Virus record (IMG/VR): IMGVR_UViG_3300050821_006672
Span: 45,476-109,475 of that record
DNA length: 64,000 bases
From: a virus
Direction: 5' to 3' (one strand)
In this document: positions 20,709-36,984 of the stretch, piece after piece
Position numbering within the stretch: the first letter of the stretch is position 1
Layout of the letters: every line of letters begins with the position of its first letter
Position numbers and translations under genes: made by a program
Notes under the pieces: generated by a model
What the model saw: only the letters and a program-made list of their open reading frames with translations
The model's database searches: none
What the model was told of the DNA's origin: nothing

Positions 20709-21140
20709 ATGGGCGTTCAAGTAGGCTTCAACCTAACAGCGTGGCGGGCGCGTTATCCGGAGTTCGATGACGTACCCGATCCGCTGATTCAGCAGTACTT
20801 TACTGAGGCCACGATCTTTCATCGTAATGATGGTGGTGGTCCTGTGAGGGATAGCAATCAGCAGTTGGTCTTGTTGAATATGGTGGTTGCTCACATTTGT
20901 AAGCTGAATGCGCCTGTGCGTGGCGAACCTTCTCCTGATATCGTCGGTCGTATCTCCAATGCAAGCGAGGGTAGCGTGAGCGTCGCTACGGAAATGGACT
21001 TGCCTCCTGGGTCTGCACAATGGTGGGGACAAACCAAATATGGGATTGCGTACTGGACTGCATCCGCGCCGTTCCGACAAATGAGATATAGGGTTGGTCG
21101 TCAGCGAAACTTCAACCCATGGTATCCGGCAGGTTATTGA
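20709..21140 (+). CDS. Head-tail adaptor (DUF4054 family)
   Basis: WRARYPEF, LLNMVVAHI, VGRISNASEGSVSV and WWGQTKYGIAYW motifs. Confidence 0.88.
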   Translation: MGVQVGFNLTAWRARYPEFDDVPDPLIQQYFTEATIFHRNDGGGPVRDSNQQLVLLNMVVAHICKLNAPVRGEPSPDIVGRISNASEGSVSVATEMDLPPGSAQWWGQTKYGIAYWTASAPFRQMRYRVGRQRNFNPWYPAGY

Positions 21141-21149
21141 TTTTTCTGT

Positions 21150-21353
21150 GTTGGGGTTAGCTGGGATCGGGCTAGGTATGTTATGTTTGAGGTACGGTAT
21201 GGTCTTTTTCCTTAGTCAATTTTACCTTTGTGTTGAGTTGTGGCTAGCTAAGGTGTGGTATGTTACGTTGAGGTGAGCTGCGGTAGGTTTCGTTTTCGGG
21301 TAAGTTGAGTTCTGCTAAGCTCAGGTTTGGTACATTCTGGTAAGGTAAGTTTT
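21150..21353 (+). repeat. Three tracts of in-phase G-N-Y-NN pentamers (11, 13 and 11 units); candidate guide-RNA array
   Basis: Tracts at 21150-21205, 21232-21296 and 21299-21353, e.g. GTTGA GTTGT GGCTA GCTAA GGTGT GGTAT GTTAC GTTGA GGTGA GCTGC GGTAG GTTTC GTTTT. Confidence 0.85.
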
Positions 21354-21373
21354 TGCTTCTCGTATGGTAGAGA

Positions 21374-21497
21374 TATCGCGGCGACTAACGCGATAGAAAC
21401 GCGGCACCAATACACGAACCTCCTTCGCGTTCGGTGTCGCTGAAAGGTGACCCCTGTAACTCGCGTTTCCGGGCTTAGTCGGCTGGGCGCGAAGGAG
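21374..21497 (+). promoter_or_regulatory. Structured 5' leader of the RAMP gene with anti-Shine-Dalgarno element
   Basis: Stems TATCGCG/CGCGATA and GAAACGCG/CGCGTTTC; CTCCTTCGCG (21420-29) is complementary to CGCGAAGGAG (21488-97, the RBS). Confidence 0.6.
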
Positions 21498-21505
21498 ACA
21501 CAGCT

Positions 21506-22123
21506 ATGGTAGCCAAGGCTAAGGTAATTCACATCAATGAGCCGACTGATGGGGGCAACGAGGCAATCGGCTATTCGGAACCTTACTCGGTTCGCGTCGC
21601 GCTAGAAGGCGCAGCCGATTACCTGTTTCATCGGTACAACTGCGAATCAGTTGAGGCTAAAAGCAACGCGGCAAAGGGTTCGAAGGCCAAGAAGACTGAC
21701 GACATTGAGAGTTACGTTTGGCGGACGAACGACGGGCAACTTGCCATTCCTGGCGAACATCTTCGCGGAGCGATCATCAAAGCCGCTAAGTTCCGCCAAG
21801 ACCCGCGCTCTCCGCGTAAGTCGGCAATGGATTTGTTTAAGGCCGGCATCGTGGTTACGACAGGATTAGCCCCAGTGGGAAAGAAGGATTGGGATTACCT
21901 CCACAAGGGGCGGGTAGTTGTGCACGGAAGCGCTATCCCCCGCGTCCGTCCTGCGCTTCGGCAGGGTTGGAAGGTAGCTTTTGATGTCTCAGTAATCTTG
22001 CCGGAGTACATTGATAAAAACTCTCTGCGAGAGACTATCGAGGCTGCGGGTCGTCTTTGTGGCCTTGGCGACTATCGACCAACCTTCGGCCGATTTGGGA
22101 TTATTTCTTACCAATCAGCTTAG
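21506..22123 (+). CDS. Stand-alone RAMP (Cas7/Csm3-like) protein
   Basis: 205 aa. First strand VRVALEGAADYLFH; IPGEHLRGAIIKAA (cf. RAMP IPGSSLKG); C-terminal Gly-rich loop GLGDYRPTFGRF. No other cas genes in the window. Confidence 0.8.
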   Translation: MVAKAKVIHINEPTDGGNEAIGYSEPYSVRVALEGAADYLFHRYNCESVEAKSNAAKGSKAKKTDDIESYVWRTNDGQLAIPGEHLRGAIIKAAKFRQDPRSPRKSAMDLFKAGIVVTTGLAPVGKKDWDYLHKGRVVVHGSAIPRVRPALRQGWKVAFDVSVILPEYIDKNSLRETIEAAGRLCGLGDYRPTFGRFGIISYQSA

Positions 22124-22220
22124 GTCTGGTGTGGTTAGTTGGGGTCAGGTGGTGTTTGGTAAGATTTGATCGGGTAAGGTAAGGTCTTTGCGTATGTCTA
22201 AGTTAGTCTAGGTTCTGTTC
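22123..22220 (+). repeat. Fourth G-N-Y-NN pentamer tract (13 units plus degenerate tail)
   Basis: GGTCT GGTGT GGTTA GTTGG GGTCA GGTGG TGTTT GGTAA GATTT GATCG GGTAA GGTAA GGTCT (22123-22187), starting on the last base of the RAMP stop codon. Confidence 0.85.
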
Positions 22221-22255
22221 CCCCAGTCCTCCCCCCGCAGCAGGGCCTAGATGTA

Positions 22256-22303
22256 CCCGCGTCGCTCCCTTCCCCCTCCCCCCGAGCCTGGGAGCGACGC
22301 GGG
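22256..22303 (+). terminator. Perfect 14-bp GC hairpin with C-rich loop (terminator-like or processing signal)
   Basis: CCCGCGTCGCTCCC / GGGAGCGACGCGGG with a 20-nt loop; only a weak U-tract follows. Confidence 0.5.
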
Positions 22304-22327
22304 GAACTCTTTCGAGAGGACCAGCCC

Positions 22328-22558
22328 ATGATTACAGGGTTATTCACCGATGGGCAGTCCGTTGAACTTTCGCTTCCTTGTGACGCGACACTTGCAGTGC
22401 GTTATCTAGGGAATGAGGACGACGTTCTTGTGCCGAACGGCTCTTGCGGTGTTGTGGTATCAGTGCTTGAGTATAATCTAAATACGTTGGCTACTGTCAA
22501 ATTCGATGGACTCAAGCGTGATCTTGTAATCCCCACCAAGTATTTGAAGGCATGTTGA
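22328..22558 (+). CDS. Hypothetical protein
   Basis: GAGGA RBS; 76 aa. Confidence 0.55.
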   Translation: MITGLFTDGQSVELSLPCDATLAVRYLGNEDDVLVPNGSCGVVVSVLEYNLNTLATVKFDGLKRDLVIPTKYLKAC

Positions 22559-22704: not shown

Positions 22705-23241
22705 ATGGCTGACCGCAAATACCTCCCGACTTTCGCCGATCTCGTTGATAGGCTCTGCATTACGCAGATGAAAGCGATCTTCATCCCTGAACGGCAGGGC
22801 GAATACGTTGAAGAAATGTCGTTGATTATGCATGACATCGATCTTATCTTGGAAAGTCAAGCTAAGACGATTGCCGCTACTGACGTTCGTGCGATGCTTG
22901 TGCTTATGTTGAGCAACCGTTTCATATGGGAGAATGAAACAAAAGCGCGAGCGGGCGGGACGGATCAGGACAAGCTTCTTAAATTGACTCATAGTATAAA
23001 TGGCGTGAGGAATACAGCTAAGAATGCATTGGCCCATATTGATGGCGGTCGGAGAGACTTCAAAACGGATTGCTTTGCTGCGGAGTTAGTTGCTGACTTC
23101 GGTAATTGGAATGTATTTGGAGTGCAGAACGGCGAGGCTCGATGGGAAACCGATCAGAGAAATTATACTCAACTGGCGGATAGACGGGATAAATCTGTGC
23201 ATGGTGGGGCTGGGCGTGTTCTGCCCTCGTCGGATTATTAG
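22705..23241 (+). CDS. Helical protein of the kind seen in sugar-synthesis clusters (DUF4254-like)
   Basis: LPTFADLVDRLCITQMK...IWENE...NGVRN pattern; first gene of the sugar cluster. Confidence 0.5.
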   Translation: MADRKYLPTFADLVDRLCITQMKAIFIPERQGEYVEEMSLIMHDIDLILESQAKTIAATDVRAMLVLMLSNRFIWENETKARAGGTDQDKLLKLTHSINGVRNTAKNALAHIDGGRRDFKTDCFAAELVADFGNWNVFGVQNGEARWETDQRNYTQLADRRDKSVHGGAGRVLPSSDY

Positions 23242-23246
23242 GCAAG

Positions 23247-23861
23247 ATGCTCCAAATCGTAGCTAGAAACCGAATAACGCGCAGCGACTTGCAGGAGTTT
23301 ACGCAGCGCGTTGCCGACGCGTTCAATGCTGGCGAAATCCACGCTCCCGTCCACCTTAGCGGCGGCAATGAAGATCAGCTGATTGATATCTTCTCGGAGA
23401 TCGCTCCAACCGACTGGGTATGCTCAACATGGCGTAGCCATTATCATGCGATCCTCAAAAACATTCCTCAAGAACAACTGATGTCGGACATTCGTGCGGG
23501 ACGCTCGATCTCATTGTGCTATCCAGAACACCGTCTTATTTCCTCGGCAATTGTTGCGGGCTGTTTGCCCATTGCGGTGGGTCTTGCCTGGTCCATCAAG
23601 AATGCCGAGAAGGATGAGCACGTCTGGGCCTTCTGTGGTGATATGGCAGCGACAACCGGAATATTCTCCGAGTGCACTCGATACGCTGAGAGCTATCGCC
23701 TTCCCGTTACGTTCATAATTGAGGATAATGGCAAGTCGGTCTGTACGAATACCAAACAAGTTTGGAACGGACAACACGATAATTGGCAAAGCAATGTGCG
23801 GTATTACTCCTACAAACTGCCATGGCCCCATAGTGGTGCCGGCAAACGAGTGAACTTCTAA
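23247..23861 (+). CDS. Minimal TPP-dependent E1-alpha-like subunit
   Basis: HLSGGNE and STWRSHYHA; TPP-binding motif variant GDMAATTG...IIEDN. Confidence 0.88.
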   Translation: MLQIVARNRITRSDLQEFTQRVADAFNAGEIHAPVHLSGGNEDQLIDIFSEIAPTDWVCSTWRSHYHAILKNIPQEQLMSDIRAGRSISLCYPEHRLISSAIVAGCLPIAVGLAWSIKNAEKDEHVWAFCGDMAATTGIFSECTRYAESYRLPVTFIIEDNGKSVCTNTKQVWNGQHDNWQSNVRYYSYKLPWPHSGAGKRVNF

Positions 23862-23899
23862 CCGGCGAGTGGTGACGCCCCTCTTCCGGGAACAGGAAC

Positions 23900-24484
23900 A
23901 TGAACCTTAACCTTTGGGATTCAAGCAGAGGCACCGTTACAATCGGATTGCCGATGGACCTAGCTGCGGGGGCTTCGCAGACGGTGGCCGGTCAGGTACA
24001 GCTATCTTCTGCTGGGGTAAGCCCCGGTGCGACAGGCGCCGACAACGTGCTGGCTGTTTTCTCAATCCCGCCGGGCTCATTTGCGGCTGCTGGGAACGGG
24101 CTTTACATTGCGGCCTATGGCACATTTGCTAACAACGGCAACAACAAGCGGGTGAAGATCATATTCAATCCTGCAACTGCCGTAGTTGGAGCGACTGTTG
24201 GGGCAGGCGGCACAACTATCGCTGACACAACGACTTACTCCACCTCTGCGCTGTCCGCTTTCACGTTGGAGGCTACAGTTTTCAAATATGGTGCGGCGGG
24301 GAGCAATACGCAGATAGGCATAAATGGTGAAAACACCGTAGCAGCGGTTAGCGAGACCCTCATTGTGCCTCAGCTTATTACTGCAAATGAGGCTGCGGTG
24401 ATTCTCATTGCGGTTACTGGGAATGCTGGATCGGCCGTCGCAGACATCCTATTGAATGCGCTTGCGATAACTCCTATTTCGTAG
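23900..24484 (+). CDS. Ala/Gly/Thr-rich putative virion protein
   Basis: Structural-protein-like composition; sits between the E1 alpha and beta genes. Confidence 0.55.
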   Translation: MNLNLWDSSRGTVTIGLPMDLAAGASQTVAGQVQLSSAGVSPGATGADNVLAVFSIPPGSFAAAGNGLYIAAYGTFANNGNNKRVKIIFNPATAVVGATVGAGGTTIADTTTYSTSALSAFTLEATVFKYGAAGSNTQIGINGENTVAAVSETLIVPQLITANEAAVILIAVTGNAGSAVADILLNALAITPIS

Positions 24485-24494
24485 AGAGGCAGTC

Positions 24495-24791
24495 ATGGCA
24501 AGTTCACTTCCGCTCCAATTGAATGAAGACACTATTCCTGTGCTTCTCGCCAGAATGGGGACCCCCCTCAAAGGCGATGGGCAACTCCACCTTATGGCGG
24601 GCATGGCCTTTCGCGTTGGCGACGTACTGTCTGAGGCGTCTGTTACTGCCATAGTTCCGGCTGTTGTAGCTACTCCCGCCAAGAACGGCATTCCTGCTCA
24701 GAACTTTACGGCGAGCGAGGCTGCTTTGCTTGTAGCGGAATTGCACAATAGAGGGGCGACTGTGGAAAGTAAGGGGAAGAGCAAAAGGTAG
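24495..24791 (+). CDS. Hypothetical protein
   Basis: GAGG RBS; operon-packed. Confidence 0.5.
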   Translation: MASSLPLQLNEDTIPVLLARMGTPLKGDGQLHLMAGMAFRVGDVLSEASVTAIVPAVVATPAKNGIPAQNFTASEAALLVAELHNRGATVESKGKSKR

Positions 24792-25312
24792 TGGGCTACT
24801 TTTCCAACCTCTGCGCTGCGATGCAACTAGTCAGCGAGCATCCGCAGTCTGTCTTTATGGGACAAGCGGTTGCGTGCGAAGGAACGGCTATGTTCCGCAC
24901 GCTCGCTGATGTTCCAATAGAAAAGCGCCTTGAACTACCAGTCGTTGAAGATATGCAGATGGGGATGGCAATTGGCATGTCCCTTAGCGGCCATCTCCCC
25001 GTTTGTATCTATCCAAGGTTCAATTTCCTGCTTCTCGCGCTGAATCAGCTTGTTCTGCACCTCGACAAGCTGCCTTTAATGGGCGATTACAAGCCGAAGG
25101 TGCTTGTCAGAACGGCTGTAGCAACCTCGAAGCCGCTTTACCCTGGGCCGCAGCACATCGGAAACTACACGACTGCGCTCGCACATATGCTGGATACAGT
25201 AGCTATTGACCGGCTTGAGCACGCAGATGATATTGTCCCCGCGTATGAAAGAGCGTTGGGGCGCGACGGTTCGACGCTCTTAATCGAATATCATGAGAAA
25301 TACGACGCTTAG
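24791..25312 (+). CDS. TPP-dependent E1-beta / transketolase pyrimidine-binding subunit (no C-terminal domain)
   Basis: FMGQAV, ELPVVEDMQMGMAIG, NQLVLHLDK and GPQH motifs. Confidence 0.85.
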   Translation: MGYFSNLCAAMQLVSEHPQSVFMGQAVACEGTAMFRTLADVPIEKRLELPVVEDMQMGMAIGMSLSGHLPVCIYPRFNFLLLALNQLVLHLDKLPLMGDYKPKVLVRTAVATSKPLYPGPQHIGNYTTALAHMLDTVAIDRLEHADDIVPAYERALGRDGSTLLIEYHEKYDA

Positions 25313-25320
25313 GGAGGTGC

Positions 25321-26091
25321 TTGGTGATACCTCGGAATAAAGACACGCTCTTCTATTTCAATGCGCTTAGGCTGTTGCCGCGACGCGCCTATGGCGTTGT
25401 ATACTTACTTACGAACATAGACACGGGGCGATCTTATGTAGGGCAGACTACACAAGCCGTTCCTTTTGATCGAATATTTACACATCGAAAGAGCGCCCTA
25501 AGCGGGAATAGCAGTAACATCCTGCATCGGGCCATACGAAAGTACGGTTGGTCGGCATTTCGAATTGAAATTATTGCCAACTGCGATAACCGAAAAGCGT
25601 TGGATGCTGCTGAAGCGTATTTTATTGAACTATACCAGACGATGTCCCCAAACGGCTATAATATGAAGCATGGGGGTGCCAAAGGGCGATTTTCTGAACA
25701 ATTTAAGCGCAAGCTTCGAAGAGTCCACTCTGCTCCTAAAGTCAGCCAAAAGCATCGAGAAACTATCACTGCATGTTGGGCCGACCCAGCGCATATGGCG
25801 AAGCTAAAAGTAACTTGGAAGGTCAAAAATGCTTTGTCGGCTCCCGCACGCGCAGAAAAGAAGCGTGTTAAAAGGGAAGCGTGGATAGCTACTAAGCCCG
25901 AGCGCCTTGCTAAGAAAAATGCAGCTATAAAAGCTGCGCATAGCAGGCCTGAGGTAAAAGAAAAAGTCGGACGTGGTACAAGAAATAGCCGATGGATTTG
26001 TAGGGGGATAGCGTCGCAACGATTAAAGCTGGGAGAACCCCTTCCTAAGGGTTGGAATTTCGGAAGGGGAGCTTCTTATGAGCGCTCGTGA
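25321..26091 (+). mobile_element. Free-standing GIY-YIG homing endonuclease
   Basis: GVVYLLTN...SYVGQT, LHRAIRKYG, E-x-x-FI and GYN motifs; basic C-terminal DNA-binding region. Confidence 0.85.
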
Positions 26092-27211
26092 ATTTTGGTT
26101 TCCTACTGGGTTCAAATATTGGGGAGTGGAAGAAGACGAAGCCATTGCTAGAGTGATATCTAGCGGCTGGTTTACATACGGCAAAGAGGTTGCAGCTTTT
26201 GAAGAAGAGTACGCTGCTTACCACAAGCGCAAGTATGCGGTTATGGTGAATAGCGGCAGTTCCGCTAACTTGATTGCTGTAGCTGCTCTTTGTAATTTGC
26301 GATCTCGAAAGCCGTTATCCCGCGGGGATACGGCCCTTGTTCCCGCGGTTGCTTGGTCAACAACCTATGCTCCCTTAATACAGCACGGTCTAGAATTGCG
26401 GCTGCTTGACGTAGACGATACTTGGAATGCATATCCTTATGGGGGTACTGAGTCCTTTAGGCTAATCGTCGGGTGCTCCATATTAGGTAGTCCTGCTCGA
26501 CTGGAAGAATGCCAAAAGTTTGCCAACCGTAACGGAGCGTATTTCATCAATGATGACTGCGAATCTCTAGGTGCCTCGATTGGAGGACGAACAACCGCAT
26601 CTTTCGGTTTGATGGCAACCAGTAGTTTCTTCGCTTCCCATCAGATATCTGCTATCGAGGGCGGCGCTATTTTGACAGATGAGGATGAATGCTATAGACT
26701 TTGTCGTATGCTGCGCAGCCATGGGTGGACGCGAGACGTTGAGCCTCCAAAGAACTTTGATGAAGAATATTCGTTCGAACTTTTCGGTCTAAATGTTCGT
26801 CCAGTCGAGATGCACGCGGCTATAGCTCGGGAGCAGTTGAAGAAGCTTTCACATATGATCGATGCACGTCAGAAGAACTTGGATCATTTTTGGAGGCTGA
26901 TGCAGGGCCTACCAATCGCATTGCAGGGTCATTATCTAGGGACTAAGCGATCGTCCTTTGGCATCGCCTTTACGGTAGCGAACAAGAACATTCGATCTAA
27001 GCTGGCCGACGCGCTACGCGCTGAGGATATTGACTGTCGCTTACCCACGGGAGGGTCATTCCGTATGCATAAGTATGGTGAGCGGTGGAGAGCGCAGGCA
27101 ACGCCTAATGCTGACCGCATCCACGAGACTGGGTTGTTCCTTGGGCTTGCGCCGTTCCCAATTGAGGATAAAATCGAGCGTGCTGTGAATGTTATGAAGG
27201 GGGTATTGTGA
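26078..27211 (+). CDS. DegT-family PLP enzyme, ColD-like NDP-4-keto-6-deoxyhexose 3-dehydratase
   Basis: VNSGSSANL, DDCESLGA, SFFASHQISAIEGG (His at the usual Lys position), RSHGWTR and NVRP motifs. Confidence 0.82.
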   Translation: MSAREFWFPTGFKYWGVEEDEAIARVISSGWFTYGKEVAAFEEEYAAYHKRKYAVMVNSGSSANLIAVAALCNLRSRKPLSRGDTALVPAVAWSTTYAPLIQHGLELRLLDVDDTWNAYPYGGTESFRLIVGCSILGSPARLEECQKFANRNGAYFINDDCESLGASIGGRTTASFGLMATSSFFASHQISAIEGGAILTDEDECYRLCRMLRSHGWTRDVEPPKNFDEEYSFELFGLNVRPVEMHAAIAREQLKKLSHMIDARQKNLDHFWRLMQGLPIALQGHYLGTKRSSFGIAFTVANKNIRSKLADALRAEDIDCRLPTGGSFRMHKYGERWRAQATPNADRIHETGLFLGLAPFPIEDKIERAVNVMKGVL

Positions 27212-27445
27212 TGTCTCGTCCTAAAGCATCCTACCGTGCCGAGCGACGACGTACTTGTCGCCAAATGCGAATGATTTGGAGCGAATTTCAAAAGCGCCAC
27301 CCAGTAGAATCGCTGCGACCTAAGAAGAAACAATACAAAGGGACATCAGGCTGATGTCTCTTATGCAAGGTGTCGTTGTAGGATTATTGATAGAGGCCGA
27401 AGCGGTAGTTATTACCTTGCTGATTTTTCATCTTTTTGGAGCTTT

Positions 27446-27757
27446 GTGGTGATGTTAAGCAGATTTTGGTTTTGGGTTAATCGTATTGACATAATTTCGG
27501 AGGCTGAGGGCGAAGACTGGGCGCGTGAGTGGATGCGAGAACACGGTTGTAAGTGGAACGGGTTTTGTAGTTACTGGTTCAAATGGGAAGAGGTGCTTAA
27601 TGATGAGGTTCGACAAGGATTAAAGCCTGAGCCGCTTTTATGGCAAATTCAACGCGAGAGTACGCAGCGAAAACGTAGGCGTCGCGATAAATACGATTGC
27701 TGGGATCGGCTAATCGGTAACGACCTCTTCGATACCATTCACGGTGGTATTTTCTGA
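27446..27757 (+). CDS. Hypothetical protein
   Basis: Stop overlaps the start of the next gene. Confidence 0.45.
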   Translation: MVMLSRFWFWVNRIDIISEAEGEDWAREWMREHGCKWNGFCSYWFKWEEVLNDEVRQGLKPEPLLWQIQRESTQRKRRRRDKYDCWDRLIGNDLFDTIHGGIF

Positions 27758-28731
27758 TGCGCTGTTTGATAACTGGCGGCGCTGGCTTCATCGGTAGCGT
27801 TCTCGTCCCCTCCCTTCTCAACGAAGGCTTCGCTGTTACTGTCGTTGATAACTTTATGTATGGCAACTCGCTATCGCTAGCGGCTTGTTGTACCCATTCC
27901 AAATTCGACGTTATCCGAGGCGATGCGCGCGATCCAAGGGTAATCGGCCCGCTGCTCGCTAAGCACGATGTAATTATTCCCCTTGCTGCGATCGTCGGCG
28001 CTCCTGCTTGCGATAACGATGTGTGCGCTACGGGGACAACGAATGTCGTTGCTATCGAGAATATGGTATCGAAGCTTTCCGCCGACCAATGGATTATCGC
28101 GCCTATCACTAACAGTGGCTATGGGATCGGTTCGCAGGACGAGTGCACCGAGGAATCGCCTCTGAACCCCGTCAGTCTTTACGGAAAGTCAAAGGTCGAA
28201 GCAGAGAAGGCAGTTCTCAGCCACAAGAATGGGATTAGCCTGCGCCTTGCGACGGTGTTTGGTATGTCGCCTCGGATGCGTCGTGACCTGCTGGTGAACG
28301 ATTTTGTCTGGCGTGCTGTAACCGACCGCGCGGTGACGTTGTTTGAGGCCCATTTCCGCCGTAACTACGTGCACGTGCGAGATGTGGCTAGGGCCTTTTT
28401 GCATGTATTTAGCTGTTTTGCTGGTGAGGAAAATAAGTATCTAGCAGTTCTTCCTCCTGTGGGCCTTCCGCTTGCGTCAGGCGCTTACAACATTGGTCTT
28501 AGCGATGCCAATCTGTCCAAGCTCCAGCTTTGCGAAAAGATCAAAGAACACGTTCCCGGCTTTGTGTTCTGGGAAGCGCCTGTGGGTGAGGATGCGGACA
28601 AGCGCGATTACGTCGTAAGCAACAAGAAGATCGAAGCCACTGGATTTCGATGTGAGTACAGCCTGGACGACGGTATTCGCGAGCTAGCCAAAGGCTATCG
28701 GATGATGCGGAGGGAGTACTCGAATGTATAA
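27757..28731 (+). CDS. NAD-dependent epimerase/dehydratase/reductase (extended SDR)
   Basis: TGGAGFIG, LAAIVG, YGKSK and LRLATVFG motifs. Confidence 0.92.
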   Translation: MRCLITGGAGFIGSVLVPSLLNEGFAVTVVDNFMYGNSLSLAACCTHSKFDVIRGDARDPRVIGPLLAKHDVIIPLAAIVGAPACDNDVCATGTTNVVAIENMVSKLSADQWIIAPITNSGYGIGSQDECTEESPLNPVSLYGKSKVEAEKAVLSHKNGISLRLATVFGMSPRMRRDLLVNDFVWRAVTDRAVTLFEAHFRRNYVHVRDVARAFLHVFSCFAGEENKYLAVLPPVGLPLASGAYNIGLSDANLSKLQLCEKIKEHVPGFVFWEAPVGEDADKRDYVVSNKKIEATGFRCEYSLDDGIRELAKGYRMMRREYSNV

Positions 28732-29041
28732 GCTCGTATTCAAAGTCATCGATGATGAAACAAAAGAAGATGTCTTTCCCTATCAGCAGACATTGCTTGA
28801 ATTGTCCGAGGACATTTTACGCAAGGCCGACGAGAAAGACGCCGATGCGATCAAGAAAGAAATTGAACTCCTAGGCGGGCAAGAGATGTATGCTACCTAT
28901 GTCCGTAACGGACGAGGTAGAGTGGTTAGAGATATTTGCCAAGCTGCTGGGATCATCGTTAGCAGAGTCATTGAGAGGCATTTAGCTACTCGTCTTGGTT
29001 GTAAGCACATTGCGCTGCTTGATAAGGCGAAGGAGCGGTGA
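28724..29041 (+). CDS. Hypothetical protein
   Basis: GGAG RBS; overlaps the previous stop. Confidence 0.55.
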   Translation: MYKLVFKVIDDETKEDVFPYQQTLLELSEDILRKADEKDADAIKKEIELLGGQEMYATYVRNGRGRVVRDICQAAGIIVSRVIERHLATRLGCKHIALLDKAKER

Positions 29042-29077
29042 GTTCGTTTGGGAAGGGACTGACGAGAAGGTGGGGGC

Positions 29078-29332
29078 GTGAGTATTAAGCTAGCCAAGCC
29101 TGAGCACGAGGTTCTTTATCAGGATTTGTGTAATCTTGTTGGTAAGCACGGGGATAAAGTTGATGCATTTGAAATGCTGGCGATTGCGGCGAATATGATA
29201 GGCAAGCTTATTGCTATGCAGGACCAGAGGAAGATTACAAGGGAAATGGCGCTAGATTTGGTAATTCGGAATATTGAAGAAGGGAATAAACAAGTGCTGG
29301 AGCAGCTACATAATACTGTTGGGCGAGGGTAA
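29078..29332 (+). CDS. Hypothetical protein
   Basis: 84 aa, helical; operon-packed. Confidence 0.55.
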   Translation: MSIKLAKPEHEVLYQDLCNLVGKHGDKVDAFEMLAIAANMIGKLIAMQDQRKITREMALDLVIRNIEEGNKQVLEQLHNTVGRG

Positions 29333-29336
29333 ACAG

Positions 29337-30854
29337 ATGTATGAAGCAGACGCTCTCGTCGGTGACAACTACAGCTACGATCTCGCTATTATTCACCCGT
29401 GGCCTCGCGGTATTTATAGTCACCTTGAAGACGAGTTCGCAGCGGTCGAGCCGCCTTTGTGGGTGCGACTTATTGGGGGATACATTCGCGACCAGCGCTA
29501 TTCGGTTGCAGTCATCGATCAGGAAGCCGAACAGCTCAACGATGTCCAGGTAGCGGCAAGGGTCTTTTCCTATCGACCTCGTGTCGTCGCTATCGTCGCT
29601 TACGGCCATCAGCCTTCGGCCTCTACTCAACAAATGGTCGGAGTTCGCAGTGTTGCGAAAGCCGTGCGGACCGTAACCCCCGCGAAGATCATTATTGTAG
29701 GAGGTCACGTTTCGGCGCTTCCCGAGCGCACGCTGAAAGAGGAAAGCGTTGATTATGCTTGCGTGGGGGAAGGTCCGTTGACTATCCTTGGACTTTTGCA
29801 AGAGAAAGTCCTTGGCGAAATCCCTGGGTTGGTATGGCGAGATAGCGAGCAGAAGGCTGTTAAAAATATGCCAGCAATGCTTTTGGAGCCCTACTTTCTC
29901 CGCGGAAGCCTGTGGGACAAATTACCGCTCCAACGCTACCGCGCCCATAATTGGCAATGTTTCGGTGATATCTCCGCGCGCCAGCCCTATGCTTCAATCT
30001 ACACAAGTCTGGGGTGTCCCTTCAAATGTCACTTTTGTTGTATCAACGCGCCCTTTGGGAACAGCAGCTACCGGCTCCGATCTCCTGTGGACGTAGTAGA
30101 GGAAGTTGACCGTTTATACAGGTATGACGGCGTCAAGACGTTCAAAATTATTGACGAGATGTTTGTTCTTAATCCAAAGCACTACGTCGCGATTGCGGAA
30201 GGCTTATCCGCCCTGCCCTTCGCAGACGATCTGAATTTCTGGGCTTACGCTCGCGTCGATACCGTTAAGGAAGGGCATCTAGCGCTCTTGCGAAAAGCAG
30301 GCATCCGTTGGCTGGCATTAGGTATTGAGTCGGCAAGTCAGTACGTCCGCGACGGCGCTGACAAGCGCTACTCCAACGAGGATATCGCCGAGGTCGTACG
30401 TGCGGTGCAGAAGGCTGGGATCAATGTCATCGCCAATTATATTTTTGGCCTGCCCGATGATGACCTCAATTCGATGCGAGCCACCCTGCAAATGGCGTGC
30501 GATCTCAATACCGAGTTCGCTAATTTCTACTCAGCGATGGCCTATCCTGGCTCTCCGCTATACCAGCAGGCTTTGTCGGAGGGGTGGAAGCTACCGGAGA
30601 CATGGGCAGGCTATTCACAACACAGTTACGAGACTTATCCGCTGCGGACGAAGCATGTAGATGCGGCGACCGTACTGAAATTCCGGGACGAAGCATTTGA
30701 CATCTACTTTACTCGTCCTGATTATCTCGACATGCTCTTGGATAAGTTCGGTATCGAAGCTGTTGAGCACGTCCAGCGTATGACCAAGAGTAAGCTGAAG
30801 CGTCGCCTGTTGGAAGATACTTACGCTCCGAAAGAGCGAGTGTCGTCGCATTGA
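29337..30854 (+). CDS. Cobalamin-binding radical SAM enzyme
   Basis: B12 domain (EPPLW, VGGHVSALP, GEG) plus CPFKCHFC and GIESAS; likely start MYEAD at 29337. Confidence 0.92.
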   Translation: MYEADALVGDNYSYDLAIIHPWPRGIYSHLEDEFAAVEPPLWVRLIGGYIRDQRYSVAVIDQEAEQLNDVQVAARVFSYRPRVVAIVAYGHQPSASTQQMVGVRSVAKAVRTVTPAKIIIVGGHVSALPERTLKEESVDYACVGEGPLTILGLLQEKVLGEIPGLVWRDSEQKAVKNMPAMLLEPYFLRGSLWDKLPLQRYRAHNWQCFGDISARQPYASIYTSLGCPFKCHFCCINAPFGNSSYRLRSPVDVVEEVDRLYRYDGVKTFKIIDEMFVLNPKHYVAIAEGLSALPFADDLNFWAYARVDTVKEGHLALLRKAGIRWLALGIESASQYVRDGADKRYSNEDIAEVVRAVQKAGINVIANYIFGLPDDDLNSMRATLQMACDLNTEFANFYSAMAYPGSPLYQQALSEGWKLPETWAGYSQHSYETYPLRTKHVDAATVLKFRDEAFDIYFTRPDYLDMLLDKFGIEAVEHVQRMTKSKLKRRLLEDTYAPKERVSSH

Positions 30855-31210
30855 CCCCCGTCTACCAAACGAAATCGGGTCCAGAGGTCGGCAACTGTTA
30901 TCAAGCCTCGGTTGCCAGCCTTTTGGGCCTTCCTCTCGAAGATGTTCCTGACTTTGGGCAAGAGGATGATCCAGAGCGATCCTATAAAGACTTTGTCTAC
31001 GGGCTCGGTTTTGTTGTGCTCAAACCACCGATTACTCTTAAGCCGAATTGCTATTACCTCGCTTTTGGACCCTCGATTGTTACTGGACGGCCGCACGTTG
31101 TCGTCTATCGCGCCGGTCGTCTCGAACACGATCCCCACAAGGGCCGTAACGGATTGAGTTCGGTTGAGGTAATTCACCTATTGGTTCCGATGGAGATTGA
31201 TCTGTCGTGA
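30851..31210 (+). CDS. Small Cys-His-Asp (papain-like/C39-like) protein
   Basis: GNCYQASVASLL ... HVVV ... HDP. Confidence 0.55.
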   Translation: MTPVYQTKSGPEVGNCYQASVASLLGLPLEDVPDFGQEDDPERSYKDFVYGLGFVVLKPPITLKPNCYYLAFGPSIVTGRPHVVVYRAGRLEHDPHKGRNGLSSVEVIHLLVPMEIDLS

Positions 31211-31920
31211 GCTTAGCGACTGACGGAGGCTTTTGGGAATTGAAGGACGGCGATTGGCACGGTCCTGACGTTATCGAGCATTTGATAGATGCCGAGACTT
31301 GCGTCGTTGCTTTTGCCTCAAACGAGGGCGAGTTCTCTGTCGAGATGCCTCATTTTGAATTCGGTAAGACGTTGCGGGGAATGGGCGTTGCTTACGTCCT
31401 AGTACGAGACTCCACAGGCTATCGGCAGCATTACGGTATTCAAGGTATTGGAGATCGCGCAGCTGTTGTAAGTTACCTGCTTCAACTTGGCGATAAGTAT
31501 CAACGCTTAGTCCTAGTCGGTCTGTCCTCCGGCGCGCTAGCTGCAATGATGTACGGTCAGCTGATGGCAATGGATGCACTATTTATTCACGACGGTTTAG
31601 AAGTCATTGCGATCTCGCCTTATAGCGACGTAGGCGATCCTCCTGGCGCGTATGGTAAAGATTGGCAATCTCGCGGACCTTGGGACGTGTTGAGTATGAG
31701 TTTACTATCAGACATCAAGCCTATCTTCGAGGGCGGTCCCAAAGTAAAAATCCGAGCATTCTACAGTGACGGCATTGGGACGGAGTATGACTTTGAGCAG
31801 GCGCATCGGATTGGAGTTACTGACTTGACGCTAGTTCCTGGAGCTTCCCACTCTGGACTAGGGAAGCTTATGCGCGACAAGGGCTTGCTGCAAAAGGTAT
31901 TGCTGGGGAAACAGACTTGA
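31207..31920 (+). CDS. Alpha/beta hydrolase-fold protein
   Basis: GLSSG nucleophile elbow; C-terminal Asp and His (GASH). Confidence 0.6.
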   Translation: MSLATDGGFWELKDGDWHGPDVIEHLIDAETCVVAFASNEGEFSVEMPHFEFGKTLRGMGVAYVLVRDSTGYRQHYGIQGIGDRAAVVSYLLQLGDKYQRLVLVGLSSGALAAMMYGQLMAMDALFIHDGLEVIAISPYSDVGDPPGAYGKDWQSRGPWDVLSMSLLSDIKPIFEGGPKVKIRAFYSDGIGTEYDFEQAHRIGVTDLTLVPGASHSGLGKLMRDKGLLQKVLLGKQT

Positions 31921-32819
31921 GAGTTGTCGTCCTTACTACTCACACTAACAACACGCCGATCTTGTATTCGGCGCTGGCGGCAAGTCGTAGTGTTTCCGTC
32001 ATCACTTACGATCGAATGCACTCTTTCGACTATTTGTCGGAACAGGTGGAGCAACTCAATCCCGACTGGGTTCTCTACATCGGCGCTATTCCCGAACACC
32101 ATCGCTTGCGTGTTCCGTCTATTCCCGAGTTGAAGGCAATCCAACGCAAGAAAGTTCACTTATGCTGTGATGGTGCTGACGATGCGTGGTGGTCTCTTCT
32201 GGGTGATTACCATACCCACAACGTCTTCGATTTGCAGATCAATATTGATGGTGTGAAAGCCGGACCTATTGGCGATCACGGCTGGACGACTATCGCCCCG
32301 ATCGATCCTTCAGGCTTTGGCGAGCCCATTCCCTGGTCGCAGCGTAAGACGTTCGCAGGCTTTGCAGGATTAGTGATGGGGGGTGACCGTGCTGAGACGT
32401 TACGAGCCCTAGTCGCCAAAGATTTGATTACTTACCGCTCTCGCGATGAAAAAGGCTCTGGCGATTATATCAGTTGGTTGAAGGATTGCTGCGTAATTTG
32501 GAATCATCCCGAGACCGGGGGAATGAAATCTCAGCACGTCAAGGCTCGTGTAATTGAAGCGGCGTTGGCTGGATGTCTTGTGCTGGAGAAATTGGGTTCG
32601 CCCTTAGAAAATTGGTTTGAACCGGGAATTGAATACTTTGAATGGATAGACGTTGAGCAGATTGTCTTGATATTGGATTGGGTTAAAGAGAACCCCTCCT
32701 ATGCTGAGAGCCATGCGCGTAGAATGCGTAATAAAATACTTACTCAGTACAACGTCGAGACTTTCTGGCAGCGTGTCGAGCGGCGGATAGGAGTTAGGGA
32801 TTTGGAATGCGTGGCTTGA
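31917..32819 (+). CDS. Glycosyltransferase (CgeB/Glyco_trans_1_2-like)
   Basis: HVKARVIEAALAGC...WFEPGIEY C-terminal GT-B motif. Confidence 0.8.
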   Translation: MRVVVLTTHTNNTPILYSALAASRSVSVITYDRMHSFDYLSEQVEQLNPDWVLYIGAIPEHHRLRVPSIPELKAIQRKKVHLCCDGADDAWWSLLGDYHTHNVFDLQINIDGVKAGPIGDHGWTTIAPIDPSGFGEPIPWSQRKTFAGFAGLVMGGDRAETLRALVAKDLITYRSRDEKGSGDYISWLKDCCVIWNHPETGGMKSQHVKARVIEAALAGCLVLEKLGSPLENWFEPGIEYFEWIDVEQIVLILDWVKENPSYAESHARRMRNKILTQYNVETFWQRVERRIGVRDLECVA

Positions 32820-33691
32820 TTTTTACGACCGGTTCTCGCGATACCGAGAAGATGTATCAATCTTTTACCTACCAATATCCAGACTCTATGGTTGTCCAAT
32901 ACGACAAGCCTAACCTTGATATGGTGCACATTGCTCAGTCGTTTAGGCCGGATATTATCGTTTGGATTGGCGCGCATCGCGGCTCGCATCACATTCCCGG
33001 CGTGCGTCCAGTTCCCGATACGGCAGAACTCGTGCGCGTTGGACGGGTTGCGCCGATGGTTCATCTGTGTCCGGACTCAGGCGACACGCCTTGGTGGCCT
33101 GAGATCGAGGATTTCCATCGGGCCGGTGCTTTCCGTCTTCAAGTAGGAATTGATGGGTGCCACGACTCGCCTATCGCCAGCTTCGGGATGGTAGCGCTTA
33201 CCCCAATTGATCCCGCTTTCTTCCCTGATGTGCCTTGGGAGCATAAAATCTACAGATGCGGTTTCTCTGGCGGCGGGGGCTTTCGAGAGCAGATGCTTAA
33301 TGGTCTTCAACAAAGAGGCTTTTTGACCCGCTTTCAGGATAGTTCCTACAAGGATATGTGCATTTCCTACACACAGTGTAAACTGATCCTTAACGATGCA
33401 CGGACGGGCACAGGCACCAAGCGCCACGTCAAGGGAAGGTTTGTAGAGGCTGCATTAGCCGGCGCGGTTCCTATTGAGCCCCACGATGCCCCGACGCATA
33501 ATTGGTTCAAGCCCGGTGAAGAGTACTTGGTGTGGGCGAACGAAGGCGAAATTGAAGCGCATATTGGCAGAGTGCCTGAGTTAGACGAACAGTATCGCGC
33601 TATGGCTGCGAACCTGCGCAAGCGTATGATAGAAGAGCACTCGGCCCCCGTGTTTTGGGGCAAGGTGCTTAAAAGGATGGGGTTGCAATGA
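32807..33691 (+). CDS. Glycosyltransferase, paralogue of 31917..32819
   Basis: HVKGRFVEAALAGA...WFKPGEEY; shares VHLCxD and QxxIDG. Confidence 0.8.
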   Translation: MRGLIFTTGSRDTEKMYQSFTYQYPDSMVVQYDKPNLDMVHIAQSFRPDIIVWIGAHRGSHHIPGVRPVPDTAELVRVGRVAPMVHLCPDSGDTPWWPEIEDFHRAGAFRLQVGIDGCHDSPIASFGMVALTPIDPAFFPDVPWEHKIYRCGFSGGGGFREQMLNGLQQRGFLTRFQDSSYKDMCISYTQCKLILNDARTGTGTKRHVKGRFVEAALAGAVPIEPHDAPTHNWFKPGEEYLVWANEGEIEAHIGRVPELDEQYRAMAANLRKRMIEEHSAPVFWGKVLKRMGLQ

Positions 33692-33854
33692 CTCCTTACG
33701 AACGAGCGCAGATACGCTTGCAGGCATTTAAGCTTTTAGCGGGGTGGGGCACCACCTTTCCTGGTGCAGAAAAATTGGAAGATCGATTTAAGCCCTGGGA
33801 ATTGGAAAAATTAAAAAGTGAAGCCACTGTGCTCGCTGATTGGGCGGTTAGTCC

Positions 33855-35021
33855 TTGATCTTCAACTTTTCGCTTTACAACTACACTCCTGGCGGCTTTG
33901 GGACGTATGAGGATATCATTCGTCCAATCAAAGCTATTCTGGAGGATTTGGGGCACGTCGTTACCCGTGATAATACGCTGCATCCGCCCCCGATTATCAA
34001 CATCCTGTTTGAAGGCTTCGACCAGCCAGTTAACCTAGATGTTCTTAAGCGGGCTCGCGCTGTTGGGTACCGTTTTGTGCTTGTGGCAACAGAAATGCCT
34101 ACCCACAAGACAGACCATTCATTCTATTGGAACGATCATCGCATTACGTATTGGCTGGATCGAGCGAGCGGGTTCGTTGTGGCGCTGCCTTACGCTGATG
34201 CTGTTTGGTGTGTGGTTCAAGGAACTGCTGAGTACCTTCGCAAATTTCATCCCCATACGGCCGATATTGAGTTGGGGTATAGTCCTCGACTGGTAAATTC
34301 AACCCGTGTTGAACCTCATTACAACTTTTGTATCTATGGCTCGCCTTCTGAACGACGTTTCGAGATTACGGCTCAGCTGCGTAGTAGAGGGCACGGAGTA
34401 ATTGAGAACTACACATTTCCCTTTGTTGAAGAGCGTAATCGCCTAGTGTTATCATCGCGGGTTGTTTTGGACGTCAAGCTTAAGCCTCACCTAACAGTTG
34501 TTTCTACGTCACGCATCGTTACGTCACTCCATCTGGGCCGGCCTTGCATCTCGGAACCGCGCGGACCAGAAGCTACCCAAGTGCAGCGGTGGAAGCGCGC
34601 TACGAGGTTTGCTTACAGTGACGATACGTTTATCGATGAGGCTATTTCTATGTTGCCTCACTGGAGAGAGGGCCATCGCGAGCAGTTCGAGGCTCTAAGA
34701 AACATGCAGGCGATTGACATTCTCAACGACGCAGTCAAGATTATCCCCGACAAATTCCCCGACGTTGTCGAGGGTGTATTTCAGATGCCGTTGCCTGGGA
34801 AGGTGCTAACTATCCATCAAGCTTCTGCGCCAGATAGCGCAAGTCCATATTTGCTGTGTTCTTACAACTACCACAATATAGTCGCTTATGGGCACGAGTA
34901 CTTTGTGATACCGCAGGGGATTGGTGAGGTCAATCTAGCATTAGCGATTGATCGCGCTCGGCCTGGCATCCAGCGTTTTCCTTCCGAGCACGAGGCTAAG
35001 ATGGCTGTGGGGGCGATATGA
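33855..35021 (+). CDS. Putative glycosyltransferase with C-terminal accessory domain
   Basis: ATEMP, FCIYGSPSERR and STSRIVTSLHLGRPCISE motifs; paralogue of 38379..39395. Confidence 0.7.
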   Translation: MIFNFSLYNYTPGGFGTYEDIIRPIKAILEDLGHVVTRDNTLHPPPIINILFEGFDQPVNLDVLKRARAVGYRFVLVATEMPTHKTDHSFYWNDHRITYWLDRASGFVVALPYADAVWCVVQGTAEYLRKFHPHTADIELGYSPRLVNSTRVEPHYNFCIYGSPSERRFEITAQLRSRGHGVIENYTFPFVEERNRLVLSSRVVLDVKLKPHLTVVSTSRIVTSLHLGRPCISEPRGPEATQVQRWKRATRFAYSDDTFIDEAISMLPHWREGHREQFEALRNMQAIDILNDAVKIIPDKFPDVVEGVFQMPLPGKVLTIHQASAPDSASPYLLCSYNYHNIVAYGHEYFVIPQGIGEVNLALAIDRARPGIQRFPSEHEAKMAVGAI

Positions 35022-36040
35022 AGGTCGGGTTGGCAAATCAATTAGAACCTACTCGGTTCGACGAAGCGGTCGCTTTGGGCGAGCGGATTATTGAGTCCGT
35101 AGAGACGCGACCTCAGCTTATTGAAAAACTTGGCGTTGATCCTAGGTTTGGCTTTCCTGATGCAAATTGGCATCCTAAAGAGCAAAACGATTTCCGCGAG
35201 GGATACAATCTTCTTGCTACGCTCAAATGGGACGAGGTCAAATACTTGCGCTTTCGGGCGCAGAATTTCAATGGGTTTAGCTTACTGCATATGGCCTATG
35301 GTGTTGGGAGTTCTAGTGAGCCAATACCTGTTGACTACGATACGCGGTTGTCAGAAGAGTGTTTGGATGACTTGGTTGGACGTTGGCGTGAGAGAATTAC
35401 GGGGCTTCCTCTTCAATTTATATTTCGTCCAAAAGCAATGCTTGGCGAGGTTGGCTGGCAATGGTTTGATGCTTCGGTTACGGGTGTACTGATCAATGCC
35501 GACACTGTTGCGTATCAGGAGCGGATGTTTTTACTGTACAATGGTGCATTGCTGGAAACCCCGGATAAGGTATTAGAGATTGGTGGGGGGTATGGAGCAC
35601 TTGCCTACGCCATAACTAACGGCCTTCCTGAAACCGAGTATTGGATTTGTGACTTGCCTGAGTCGCTTCTGTTCTCTGGCTTGTACTTGACGATGACTAC
35701 GAATCGAGATGTAAAGCTTTGGCCTGAACGCGGCTCAATCACGCTAGTCCCTAATTATCTATTCGGACAGATCAAAGACAAATTCGATTTGTTTATCAAC
35801 ACACTTTCTCTAGCCGAGATGACTGAATATCAGGTTAGGATGTACGTGCAAGGAATACGCGACCTGATGAGCCCTGGAGCTAAGTTCTTCGAACAGAACC
35901 ACCTCAACAACGATCTACCGGACGGTACTCACCAAGCTACAGTGAAGCAGATTTGTGCTGAGACATTCTCGGGAAGGACTAGCCTTCTTCATACGCCTTT
36001 TGAGATACTCAACGGTCCTGCCGACGTGTGGAGTACGTAA
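35018..36040 (+). CDS. Putative sugar O-methyltransferase (SAM-dependent)
   Basis: VLEIGGGYGALA, ICDLPESL and DLFINTLSLAEM motifs. Confidence 0.82.
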   Translation: MKVGLANQLEPTRFDEAVALGERIIESVETRPQLIEKLGVDPRFGFPDANWHPKEQNDFREGYNLLATLKWDEVKYLRFRAQNFNGFSLLHMAYGVGSSSEPIPVDYDTRLSEECLDDLVGRWRERITGLPLQFIFRPKAMLGEVGWQWFDASVTGVLINADTVAYQERMFLLYNGALLETPDKVLEIGGGYGALAYAITNGLPETEYWICDLPESLLFSGLYLTMTTNRDVKLWPERGSITLVPNYLFGQIKDKFDLFINTLSLAEMTEYQVRMYVQGIRDLMSPGAKFFEQNHLNNDLPDGTHQATVKQICAETFSGRTSLLHTPFEILNGPADVWST

Positions 36041-36807
36041 TGGCTGACGCTCCCGATCCGCTTTTCCTTTTGCAGCAGGACGGCATTTACGTGCCGTCTG
36101 AGCCTGTACTATCTCTAACGCAGGCTTTCGAATTCCGTTCCTATCTCAGCAGCGTCCCGGTTTACAGGCATCACATAGCGGGCAAGGCGACGGAGTCAGC
36201 CCCTAATTTTGCAACGGCCTGGAAACAGGGATGGTCAGTGTTCGCTCCTAAGACGGAAGACGTCATCAAAGCGCCACACTGGTTCGAAACTGCGCTATCC
36301 TACATGTCCCTTGCCAAAGCCTATTTTCGTCAGCAGCCGCGTATGTATTCGATAAGCGCCTTCTGGACGACGCCGGCTGAAGGTCCGTTGTATGGCGATA
36401 CGCAGACTTGGCATCGCGATCAGGATGACAAGTTCCAAATGACGCTGTTTATGTTGGGCTCTGATGTGCCCGATCCTTCTGAGGGGGCGCACTTATATCA
36501 GCGGGGTACGCATAGGACACCTGACGCAGACTTAGGGCGTGACCCTCCTTCGCCGCCCCCCTGCGGTATCGTTTCTACTGTCTACGGGCCTGCTGGAACG
36601 CTCGTCGTTGCAGATACCTGGGGATTACACAAGGCCATTAGGCCAGCTAAGCTGCCCCGCTTACTTGTGTGGGCACGGTATGCAGTCGCCAATCCGCCCT
36701 TCACGTATGTTAACGATGGGCTCGCTCCGGTGAGTAGGGATTTGTTGGGCGACCGCTATCCGACCGATCCGGAGCTTCAGGAAGCAGTGAGGCTTGTCGC
36801 GGTATAG
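36040..36807 (+). CDS. Fe(II)/2-oxoglutarate dioxygenase (PhyH-like)
   Basis: WHRD...GTH...GPAGTLVVADTWGLH facial triad. Confidence 0.8.
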   Translation: MADAPDPLFLLQQDGIYVPSEPVLSLTQAFEFRSYLSSVPVYRHHIAGKATESAPNFATAWKQGWSVFAPKTEDVIKAPHWFETALSYMSLAKAYFRQQPRMYSISAFWTTPAEGPLYGDTQTWHRDQDDKFQMTLFMLGSDVPDPSEGAHLYQRGTHRTPDADLGRDPPSPPPCGIVSTVYGPAGTLVVADTWGLHKAIRPAKLPRLLVWARYAVANPPFTYVNDGLAPVSRDLLGDRYPTDPELQEAVRLVAV

Positions 36808-36984
36808 AGCGGGAGAGGCCCTACAATGGGACCGACAGAACTTAATAGCAGTATTTCTTTTCTTGAGAAATCAGTTAGGAACCTTATCCAAGAGGTTGTG
36901 CGGCTAGAAAAACGTATTGAAACCTTGGAAAGGGAACGCCGTCCTACAGACGCGATTTCTCCAACTCATTGGATAAGCGGGTAA

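Follow-up and report, generated by a model that had tools for sequence, protein, structure and literature searches.

The preQ1-II and SAM-II riboswitches place the Shine–Dalgarno (SD) sequence within a pseudoknot. The 5′ pseudoknot of T4 gene 32, the Escherichia coli rpsO (S15) pseudoknot, and the Mu com/mom hairpin are leaders through which proteins control translation; in Mu, a phage protein opens the SD-occluding hairpin. The lambda N leader and the T7 R sites are phage leaders processed by RNase III and need only a duplex of about 20 bp. HDV-like and twister ribozymes, which typically fold as double pseudoknots, are common in phage and mobile DNA.

VIPR systems, described in 2026 preprints, consist of a Vipr protein and vrRNAs, and the vipr locus of phage SUSP1 is among those described (bioRxiv 10.64898/2026.04.26.720920). 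Systems of this kind are characterized by expression of vrRNAs that Vipr binds and by DNA targeting under a 1-nt skip rule. vrRNA arrays interspersed with hammerheads are reported as well (bioRxiv 10.64898/2026.04.26.720920), and in the SUSP1 clade the vrRNA 3′ tail is given as a pseudoknot (bioRxiv 10.64898/2026.04.26.720920, 10.64898/2026.04.26.720927). Keyword searches of the preprints that mention VIPR found no structured vipr leader, the vrRNA 3′ tail being the sole pseudoknot that they describe.

Here, we analyze a 64,000-nt stretch (the window) of a viral record of 109,475 bp with direct terminal repeats. The + strand carries nearly all long ORFs of the window. The leader sits in a 366-nt intergenic gap of the head module, downstream of a gene for a DUF4054 virion protein (20709–21140) and directly ahead of a 205-aa ORF for a Cas7/Csm3-like RAMP protein (21506–22123, + strand, ATG at 21506). 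Three tracts of GGY/NN pentamers resembling vrRNAs (21150–21353, + strand) lie upstream of the leader and outside the motif, and a fourth (22118–22187, + strand) lies just past the RAMP gene. A tandem repeat finder reported no repeats in 20900–21700 because the pentamer units vary too much.

The only profile match of the 205-aa ORF was phrog_4652, a family of unknown function. Its AlphaFold (AF2) model (pLDDT 73) gave type VII Cas7 and type III Csm3 as the top Foldseek matches (E 5e-6), and tblastn aligned the protein with that of the described SUSP1 vipr locus (37% over 73 aa, E 3e-6). In relatives, the vipr gene likewise adjoins extended series of GGY/NN pentamers. The window combines vrRNA-type genes of 9 to 16 GGY/NN pentamers, present as the four tracts that flank the ORF, with a minimal RAMP fold homologous to Vipr. 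Judged by sequence and modeled fold, the RAMP of the window is a Vipr protein that forms a VIPR system with the GGY/NN tracts. The Vipr of the nearest relative is 87% identical to that of the window.

A first-pass annotation of the window had drawn, between 21361 and 21508, a double-pseudoknot-like leader able to occlude the ribosome-binding site of the RAMP gene, and all the pairings that it listed are present in the sequence. The motif proper spans 21376–21497 on the + strand, the family size being about 125 to 135 nt. It begins with hairpin P1 (21376–21393, + strand; stem 21376–80/21389–93, 8-nt loop), which in the window phage can be stretched to 21374 and 21395 (TATCGCG, 21374–80; CGCGATA, 21389–95). 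Inside the P1 loop lies the 5′ strand of pseudoknot PK1, CGACTAA (21382–21388), which pairs with TTAGTCG (21475–21481). P2, located by an anchored helix search, joins GAAACGCGG (21396–21404) to 21461–21469; its core, as first annotated, was GAAACGCG (21396–403) with CGCGTTTC (21462–69). The 10-nt complementarity between CTCCTTCGCG (21420–29) and CGCGAAGGAG (21488–97), the core of the anti-SD/SD pairing, lengthens in RNAfold to a 16-bp helix, P3 (21420–35/21482–97), both strands of which are also seen in the alignment. The anti-SD strand of P3 is CUCCUUCGCGUUCGGU (21420–21435), and its 3′ strand (21482–21497) carries the SD as GGAG (21494–97), 8 nt ahead of the ATG at 21506.

P4 (21436–21451, + strand; 21436–41/21446–51, 6 bp) stacks directly on P3, so that the two together measure 22 bp, or about two helical turns. 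P5 (21452–21473, + strand), taken from the alignment, pairs CCC (21452–54) with GGG (21471–73) and encloses both J4/2 (CCCYUGA) and the 3′ strand of P2 (21461–69). The strands thus follow each other as P1, P2-5′, P3-5′, P4, P2-3′, PK1-3′, and P3-3′, and P3 crosses both PK1 and P2. The minimum free energy of the window leader (z = −1.5) marks it as no more stable than shuffles, and perfect inverted repeats of at least 10 nt within 120 nt number 7 in the window and 4.6 in block shuffles. Both values are near chance, so the single sequence alone is no proof of the fold.

Comparison with relatives provided that test. Relatives of the 205-aa protein were sought in viral contigs, and a recognizable copy of the leader was present in 9 of the 87 vipr loci obtained (eight distinct sequences). 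The PK1 strands read CGACTAA/TTAGTCG in the window and CGATCAA/TTGATCG, CTGCTAA/TTAGCAG, CGGTCAC/GTGACCG, or CAGCTAC/GTAGCTG elsewhere. A covariance model comprising P1, P3, and P4 (R1) was used with a core sequence pattern to scan viral contigs, metagenome contigs, and GTDB genomes. These scans recovered 65 distinct, R1-confirmed, full-length copies of a motif of about 130 nt on viral and soil metagenome contigs; the 57 distinct copies outside the seed scored 66 to 127 bits. The R1 match in the window (21368–21503, 121.6 bits, E 2e-28) holds by construction because the window is a seed sequence. GTDB species genomes contributed one true copy, on a Xanthobacteraceae metagenome-assembled contig, the other 13 pattern matches being chance. 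Apart from that contig, the sampled family comes solely from soil-type viral and metagenome contigs, and no close phage relative in GenBank spans the leader.

In the 65-copy alignment, P1, PK1, P3, P4, and P5 are paired in 97.9% of cells, compared with 82.3% after shuffling, and sliding the partners by 1 to 3 columns lowers pairing to 38 to 44%. Compensatory, double-sided changes occur in 27 of 37 pairs, and none of 500 shuffles reached any of the five measures. All five pairs of P1 show compensatory changes (98.5% of cells paired), as do 14 of the 16 in P3 (98.2% paired). PK1 is paired in 98% of cells and covaries at five of its seven pairs (e.g., AU 32/GC 31 and UA 33/CG 28); this support owes nothing to the construction of the alignment because PK1 is absent from the covariance model. 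At P4 pair 111/130, CG (37 copies) alternates with UA (28) with zero mismatches, and the third pair of P5 is CG in 59 copies, UA in five, UG in one, and CA in none; at both positions, the search pattern permitted all four combinations.

P2 varies in length and therefore cannot be aligned by columns. It lies outside R1, and a second model, R2, left it out of register (76% paired). The anchored search instead found a contiguous helix of 6 to 10 bp in 63 of the 65 copies, with 33 distinct strand sequences and a mean length of 7.37 bp, against 3.83 ± 0.23 bp when partners were exchanged. PK1, P2, and P5, none of which is in R1, are all formed in the window and supported across the family. Frequent G–U pairs (e.g., U–G in 58 of 65 copies at the P3/P4 junction) indicate that the structure belongs to the + strand RNA.

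Covariation across the 65 distinct homologous leaders, strong in four of the five pairings first annotated, bears out a conserved, multiply pseudoknotted + strand RNA. The fifth, an inner hairpin CGAAC (21415–19)/GTTCG (21429–33), is present in the window but is not conserved, being paired in 56.0% of cells in the alignment of relatives and 56.5% after shuffling. An alternative hairpin that would act as an anti-anti-SD, CACGAA/UUCGCG, likewise pairs no more often than shuffles, and none of the hairpins compared with shuffles gave the anti-SD strand a conserved alternative partner.

Beside the heavily covarying stems, the junctions CAYC, CACGAA, CCCYUGA, and UCCRGGC are near-invariant. The sequence pattern by which most copies were found prescribes some of the junction positions, so this conservation is in part a product of ascertainment. 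A relaxed scan that dropped the CCCYUG requirement returned a single additional true member, which lacks the UG of CCCYUG; this eases the concern without removing it. At gathering threshold, Rfam 15 gave no family match in the 64-kb window, and a permissive Rfam scan of 21100–22350 gave no + strand match overlapping 21361–21508. We conclude that the window leader is a member of a previously undescribed family of phage RNAs that share a strongly conserved structure.

The motif occupies a defined place with respect to promoters. Of 64 relatives, 21 have a strong sigma-70 promoter, defined by a TTGACA-like −35 element, a spacer of 16 to 18 nt, and a −10 element with A2 and T6, whose end lies 6 to 11 nt upstream of P1; such a promoter was seen at 0 of 184 control anchors and in 5 of 1280 shuffles. 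For most relatives, a transcript start no more than a few nucleotides from P1 is probable, right behind this host-type promoter. The promoter-like sequence first annotated in the window stands in its −10 half, the hexamer TATGGT (21363–21368, + strand), which occupies the −10 position of the relatives 7 nt upstream of P1. Its −35 half is poor: the best promoter match, GTAAGG-17-TATGGT, fits at only two of six −35 positions because vrRNA tract 3 abuts the site. In several vipr loci, the motif follows immediately on a vrRNA tract and has no promoter of its own.

Tracts adjoin the motif on either side. It stands directly behind a vrRNA tract in five loci, and in another five a tract separates it from the next ORF. 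This neighborhood, a double-pseudoknot architecture of the type seen in HDV-like and twister ribozymes, and a P3–P4 stack of about two helical turns would suit an RNA-processing element, that is, a new self-cleaving ribozyme or an RNase III site formed by P3 on P4; a cut might detach the vipr mRNA from the vrRNA ahead of it, or activate translation by exposing the SD, as happens in the lambda N leader. The hammerhead-interspersed vrRNA arrays of the VIPR preprint lend this reading further weight (bioRxiv 10.64898/2026.04.26.720920). We nevertheless regard it as rather improbable. The 21 copies with a strong promoter probably begin their transcripts at P1, so a 5′ cut would release nothing. Moreover, PK1, P2, and P5 are all conserved, although RNase III needs none of them. 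The helix order is unlike that of HDV-like, twister, pistol, or hatchet ribozymes, and there was no match to an Rfam ribozyme; on these grounds the motif does not fit the HDV-like or twister class.

The position of the motif relative to start codons is equally regular. In 52 of 65 copies, a start codon follows GGAG at a distance of 2 to 10 nt, and GGAG is computed to be paired nearly all the time (median unpaired probability 0.02). In the remaining 13 copies, the 10 nt past GGAG hold no ORF start, the five with an intervening vrRNA tract and one with a small hairpin before the next ORF among them. Because GGAG is kept even without an adjacent ORF, it must be conserved at least partly for the fold itself.

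This retention of GGAG is also what would be expected if its overlap with the SD were incidental and the RNA were a promoter-proximal transcription element, of the kind that directs put-like processive antitermination, or a stand-alone small RNA. The motif's location immediately downstream of sigma-70 promoters would agree with such a role, as would its single copy per genome, often in a divergent intergenic region where it heads an operon. Even so, we consider this a very improbable explanation, the least likely of all, because SD-like spacing is held in the 52 copies, cargo swaps included, because no terminator behind the motif would bound a small RNA, and because put RNAs are far smaller and less knotted than a motif of about 130 nt.

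The SD of the downstream gene lies inside a conserved helix, which makes translational gating the most natural function. We infer such gating and think it on balance probable that the motif is a portable cis-acting 5′ leader, with the SD locked in the stable P3, that gates translation of the gene that follows. P3 would keep the ribosome-binding site of that gene, here vipr, shut until some trigger loosens the fold and so permits translation; candidates for this trigger are a small ligand, a protein of the host or the phage, and processing. The hairpin at the 5′ terminus might in addition stabilize the mRNA. Several features tell against gating: the 16-bp, GC-rich P3 far exceeds in stability the helices by which riboswitches usually switch, 13 copies keep GGAG with no ORF start close behind it, and in several vipr loci the motif follows a vrRNA tract and lacks its own promoter. 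Because P3 has more stability than a simple equilibrium switch allows and conserved alternative pairings were not found, a loosening agent must be assumed: a factor, a ligand that works via the tertiary contacts, ribosomal strand invasion from the helix end, or a processing step.

If the trigger were a small molecule, the leader would be a new riboswitch aptamer, a special case of the gating leader because it is the same leader with its trigger named. The junctions would form the ligand pocket, and binding would tighten or loosen the pseudoknots and so alter access to the SD. A size of about 130 nt with three crossing interactions is typical of aptamers, as are near-invariant junctions next to heavily covarying stems, and the motif lies in the 5′ UTR right after the promoter with the SD within its fold. 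Riboswitches in general are conserved, covarying elements of the 5′ UTR with an expression platform that takes in either the SD or a terminator, and the motif has this makeup. We still judge an aptamer unlikely: P3 is more stable than a classical switch would be, conserved alternative folds did not emerge, Rfam gave zero riboswitch matches, and the genes behind the leader are heterogeneous, with no common metabolic or transport theme that would point to one ligand.

These genes were compared in 67 unique instances, namely the 65 full copies and two partial ones. A vipr-family gene stands directly behind the motif in 33 of the 67, and these include very distant members (phrog_4652 E 1e-5 to 1e-34) and one noncanonical system with CGC/NN repeats; the leader is unchanged with repeat type. 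The cargo in the other 34 includes an HNH/NUMOD4 nuclease, Bro-N, Peptidase_M78, DUF3799, a PDDEXK-like protein, DUF3223+AAA, a secreted aspartyl protease, several lipoprotein-like ORFs, and proteins of no known family; two of these 34 lie on truncated contigs and are uninformative. GGY/NN tracts go with vipr and not with the motif (22 of 28 against 8 of 39). Three near-complete phage genomes hold exactly one motif copy and no match to a close-Vipr profile. One copy per genome was the count in the window's own genome and in five other phage records. The motif is not Vipr-specific, as far as gene neighborhoods reveal.

The leader is kept independently of its downstream gene. On the leader tree, the vipr/other label changes 17 times, close to the 21.2 changes of shuffled labels, and one pair of sister leaders has different flanks and different cargo, an M78 peptidase in one and vipr in the other. 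In another pair, the leader and upstream sequence are common and divergence sets in right after the ATG; a further copy retains the first vipr codons fused to other sequence. The helices pair just as completely ahead of vipr as ahead of other cargo. The cargo swaps, the interleaved tree, and the intact helices together show the leader to behave as a conserved platform for gene exchange. Recombination at or just after the start codon would exchange the cargo gene, vipr being the commonest.

The same data bear on a role confined to the RAMP system, in which Vipr would autoregulate through its own leader or the RNA would scaffold or cap the VIPR ribonucleoprotein in the manner of the SUSP1 vrRNA 3′ tail. 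Half of the copies do head vipr-family genes, very distant members and the CGC/NN system included; the motif takes the place of a vrRNA tail in some loci; and a pseudoknot is present in SUSP1 vrRNA tails. Nonetheless, the fold is fully intact in thirty further copies that stand before unrelated genes, no close-Vipr match was obtained in near-complete phages that carry the motif, and cargo types are interleaved on the leader tree. There is also one copy per locus against four or more tracts, the motif occurs in just 9 of the 87 sampled vipr loci, the leader stays constant across repeat types, and R1 finds nothing in the vipr loci of SUSP1 or phage DSL-LC04.

Cargo heterogeneity, the phages without a close-Vipr match, and the interleaved tree make autoregulation or scaffolding unlikely as a general role, and we hold a RAMP-specific function to be very improbable. 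Of the two roles for the RNA in the first-pass annotation, a scaffold for the RAMP system is unlikely in general, since half of the 67 instances head unrelated genes and keep the fold equally well; a translational switch survives through the SD in its conserved helix, except that its RAMP-autoregulation part is unlikely to be general. A candidate pairing in trans between the P1 loop and a vrRNA tail was rejected as well. In the window, TTAGTC is also present in the tails of tracts 1 and 4; in relatives, the hexamer specific to the locus is missing from the tails, and we take the recurrence in the window as chance.

To return to the gating leader, its fold might, we suggest tentatively, be a sensor. 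It would then represent a new class of riboswitch-like or factor-binding RNAs of soil phages that switches on interphage conflict and accessory genes (Vipr, nucleases, antirepressor-type proteins, and surface lipoproteins) upon a cellular or infection signal, VIPR being the most frequent output. RNAs that combine such a size with several covarying pseudoknots and junctions that hardly vary usually prove to be riboswitches, ribozymes, or specific protein-binding RNAs. The motif would control, and does at least head, the VIPR effector gene in a subset of soil phages, and by that position it may decide when an RNA-guided silencing system is made. As a leader that stays intact while its cargo is repeatedly swapped, it resembles a natural portable expression module and may serve as a marker for an accessory-gene exchange hot spot in phage genomes.

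Among described RNAs, the vrRNA tail of SUSP1 comes closest in location, as it too is a pseudoknotted RNA bounded by a GGY/NN tract on one side and the start codon of vipr on the other. Read from its sequence, the SUSP1 tail is an H-type knot of about 33 nt after every vrRNA, whereas the motif has about 130 nt, occurs once per genome, and is found also in phages without a close-Vipr match. Its identification as a SUSP1-type tail was rejected because it occurs once per locus and not after each tract, and because an R1 search of the SUSP1 and DSL-LC04 vipr loci did not detect it.

With preQ1-II and SAM-II/SAM-V, the motif shares its place in the 5′ UTR, an SD strand held in the pseudoknot helix of a conserved fold, covarying stems, and conserved junctions. 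It exceeds them two- to threefold in size, has three crossing interactions and a very stable 16-bp SD helix, lacks an Rfam match, and is associated with nonmetabolic genes. The HDV-like and twister ribozymes resemble it as compact RNAs of similar size with nested and crossing helices. Like the lambda N leader and the T7 R sites, it places a long, irregular duplex in the 5′ leader of a phage mRNA, where it could hide an SD until cut; it differs from them in its three further conserved tertiary pairings. The leaders of T4 gene 32, rpsO, and Mu com/mom are likewise structured 5′ elements, two of them pseudoknotted as the motif is. Those leaders are single-gene operators, each tied to one protein, whereas the motif has no co-conserved binding protein and heads many unrelated genes.

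Near-identical copies of the leader, a multiply pseudoknotted RNA motif of ~130 nt, precede different downstream genes in two pairs of contigs, L097/L106 and L095/L153. Between L097 and L106, divergence begins immediately 3′ of the ATG. L095 carries an M78 peptidase gene behind the leader, whereas L153 carries vipr, the gene for the Cas7/Csm3-like Vipr protein, and the flanks upstream of these two leaders are also unlike. From these sequence comparisons, the leader appears to mark a boundary at which gene cassettes recombine.

Variant and decayed VIPR loci also occur behind the leader. In L091 (8100-9040), the motif is followed by a distant vipr (189 aa; match to the family phrog_4652, E 2.5e-5), and 3′ of this gene lie arrays of noncanonical CGC/NN pentamers. 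TTGACA is found upstream of at least two of these arrays, most of them end in AACGATTGTTTTAGCC-like tails, and a 212-aa ORF separates two array groups. The region L094:620-1900, within the complete 71.7-kb phage genome G001, is a decayed VIPR locus. It retains the leader and GGY/NN tracts, but vipr is reduced to its first ~11 codons, which read into a tract that is followed by a DUF3799 PDDEXK-like gene. A search with the profile of close Vipr relatives gave no match in the rest of the G001 genome.

Unusual arrangements were seen around other copies of the motif. In L181, the motif is followed some 270 nt downstream by a second, degenerate copy (1619-1741, − strand, 35 bits), and a small lipoprotein-like ORF lies behind each of the two. 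In L150 and L185, a two-codon mini-ORF (ATG CCC TAA) stands immediately 3′ of the motif, at normal spacing from the Shine–Dalgarno sequence, and some 130 nt separate it from the start of the next long ORF.

In the window, the hexamer TTAGTC (21475-21480), the 3′ strand of the pseudoknot with the loop of the 5′ hairpin P1, is found again in the short tails that follow vrRNA tracts 1 (21213-21218) and 4 (about 22202-22207). The P1 loop could therefore pair in trans with those tails; however, no such match was seen in relatives, and the recurrence is thus probably due to chance. Shortly 3′ of tract 4, within a C-rich stretch and 5′ of a 76-aa ORF (22328-22558), lies a perfect 14-bp GC-rich hairpin with a C-rich loop (22248-22311; arms CCCGCGTCGCTCCC and GGGAGCGACGCGGG). 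Its sole Rfam match, F6, scored 28 bits, below the required 46.

Immediately after the VIPR locus, inside the head–neck module, Pfam matches at 22705-39395 reveal split genes of the TPP-dependent E1-like type together with other enzyme genes, a group described as a sugar cluster in a separate first-pass remark. In L091, L113, L111, L102, and L200, the motif occupies a divergent intergenic region, first in its operon and with the upstream genes on the opposite strand. This setting is more like a control region of the early or immunity type than like the head module that houses the motif in the window.
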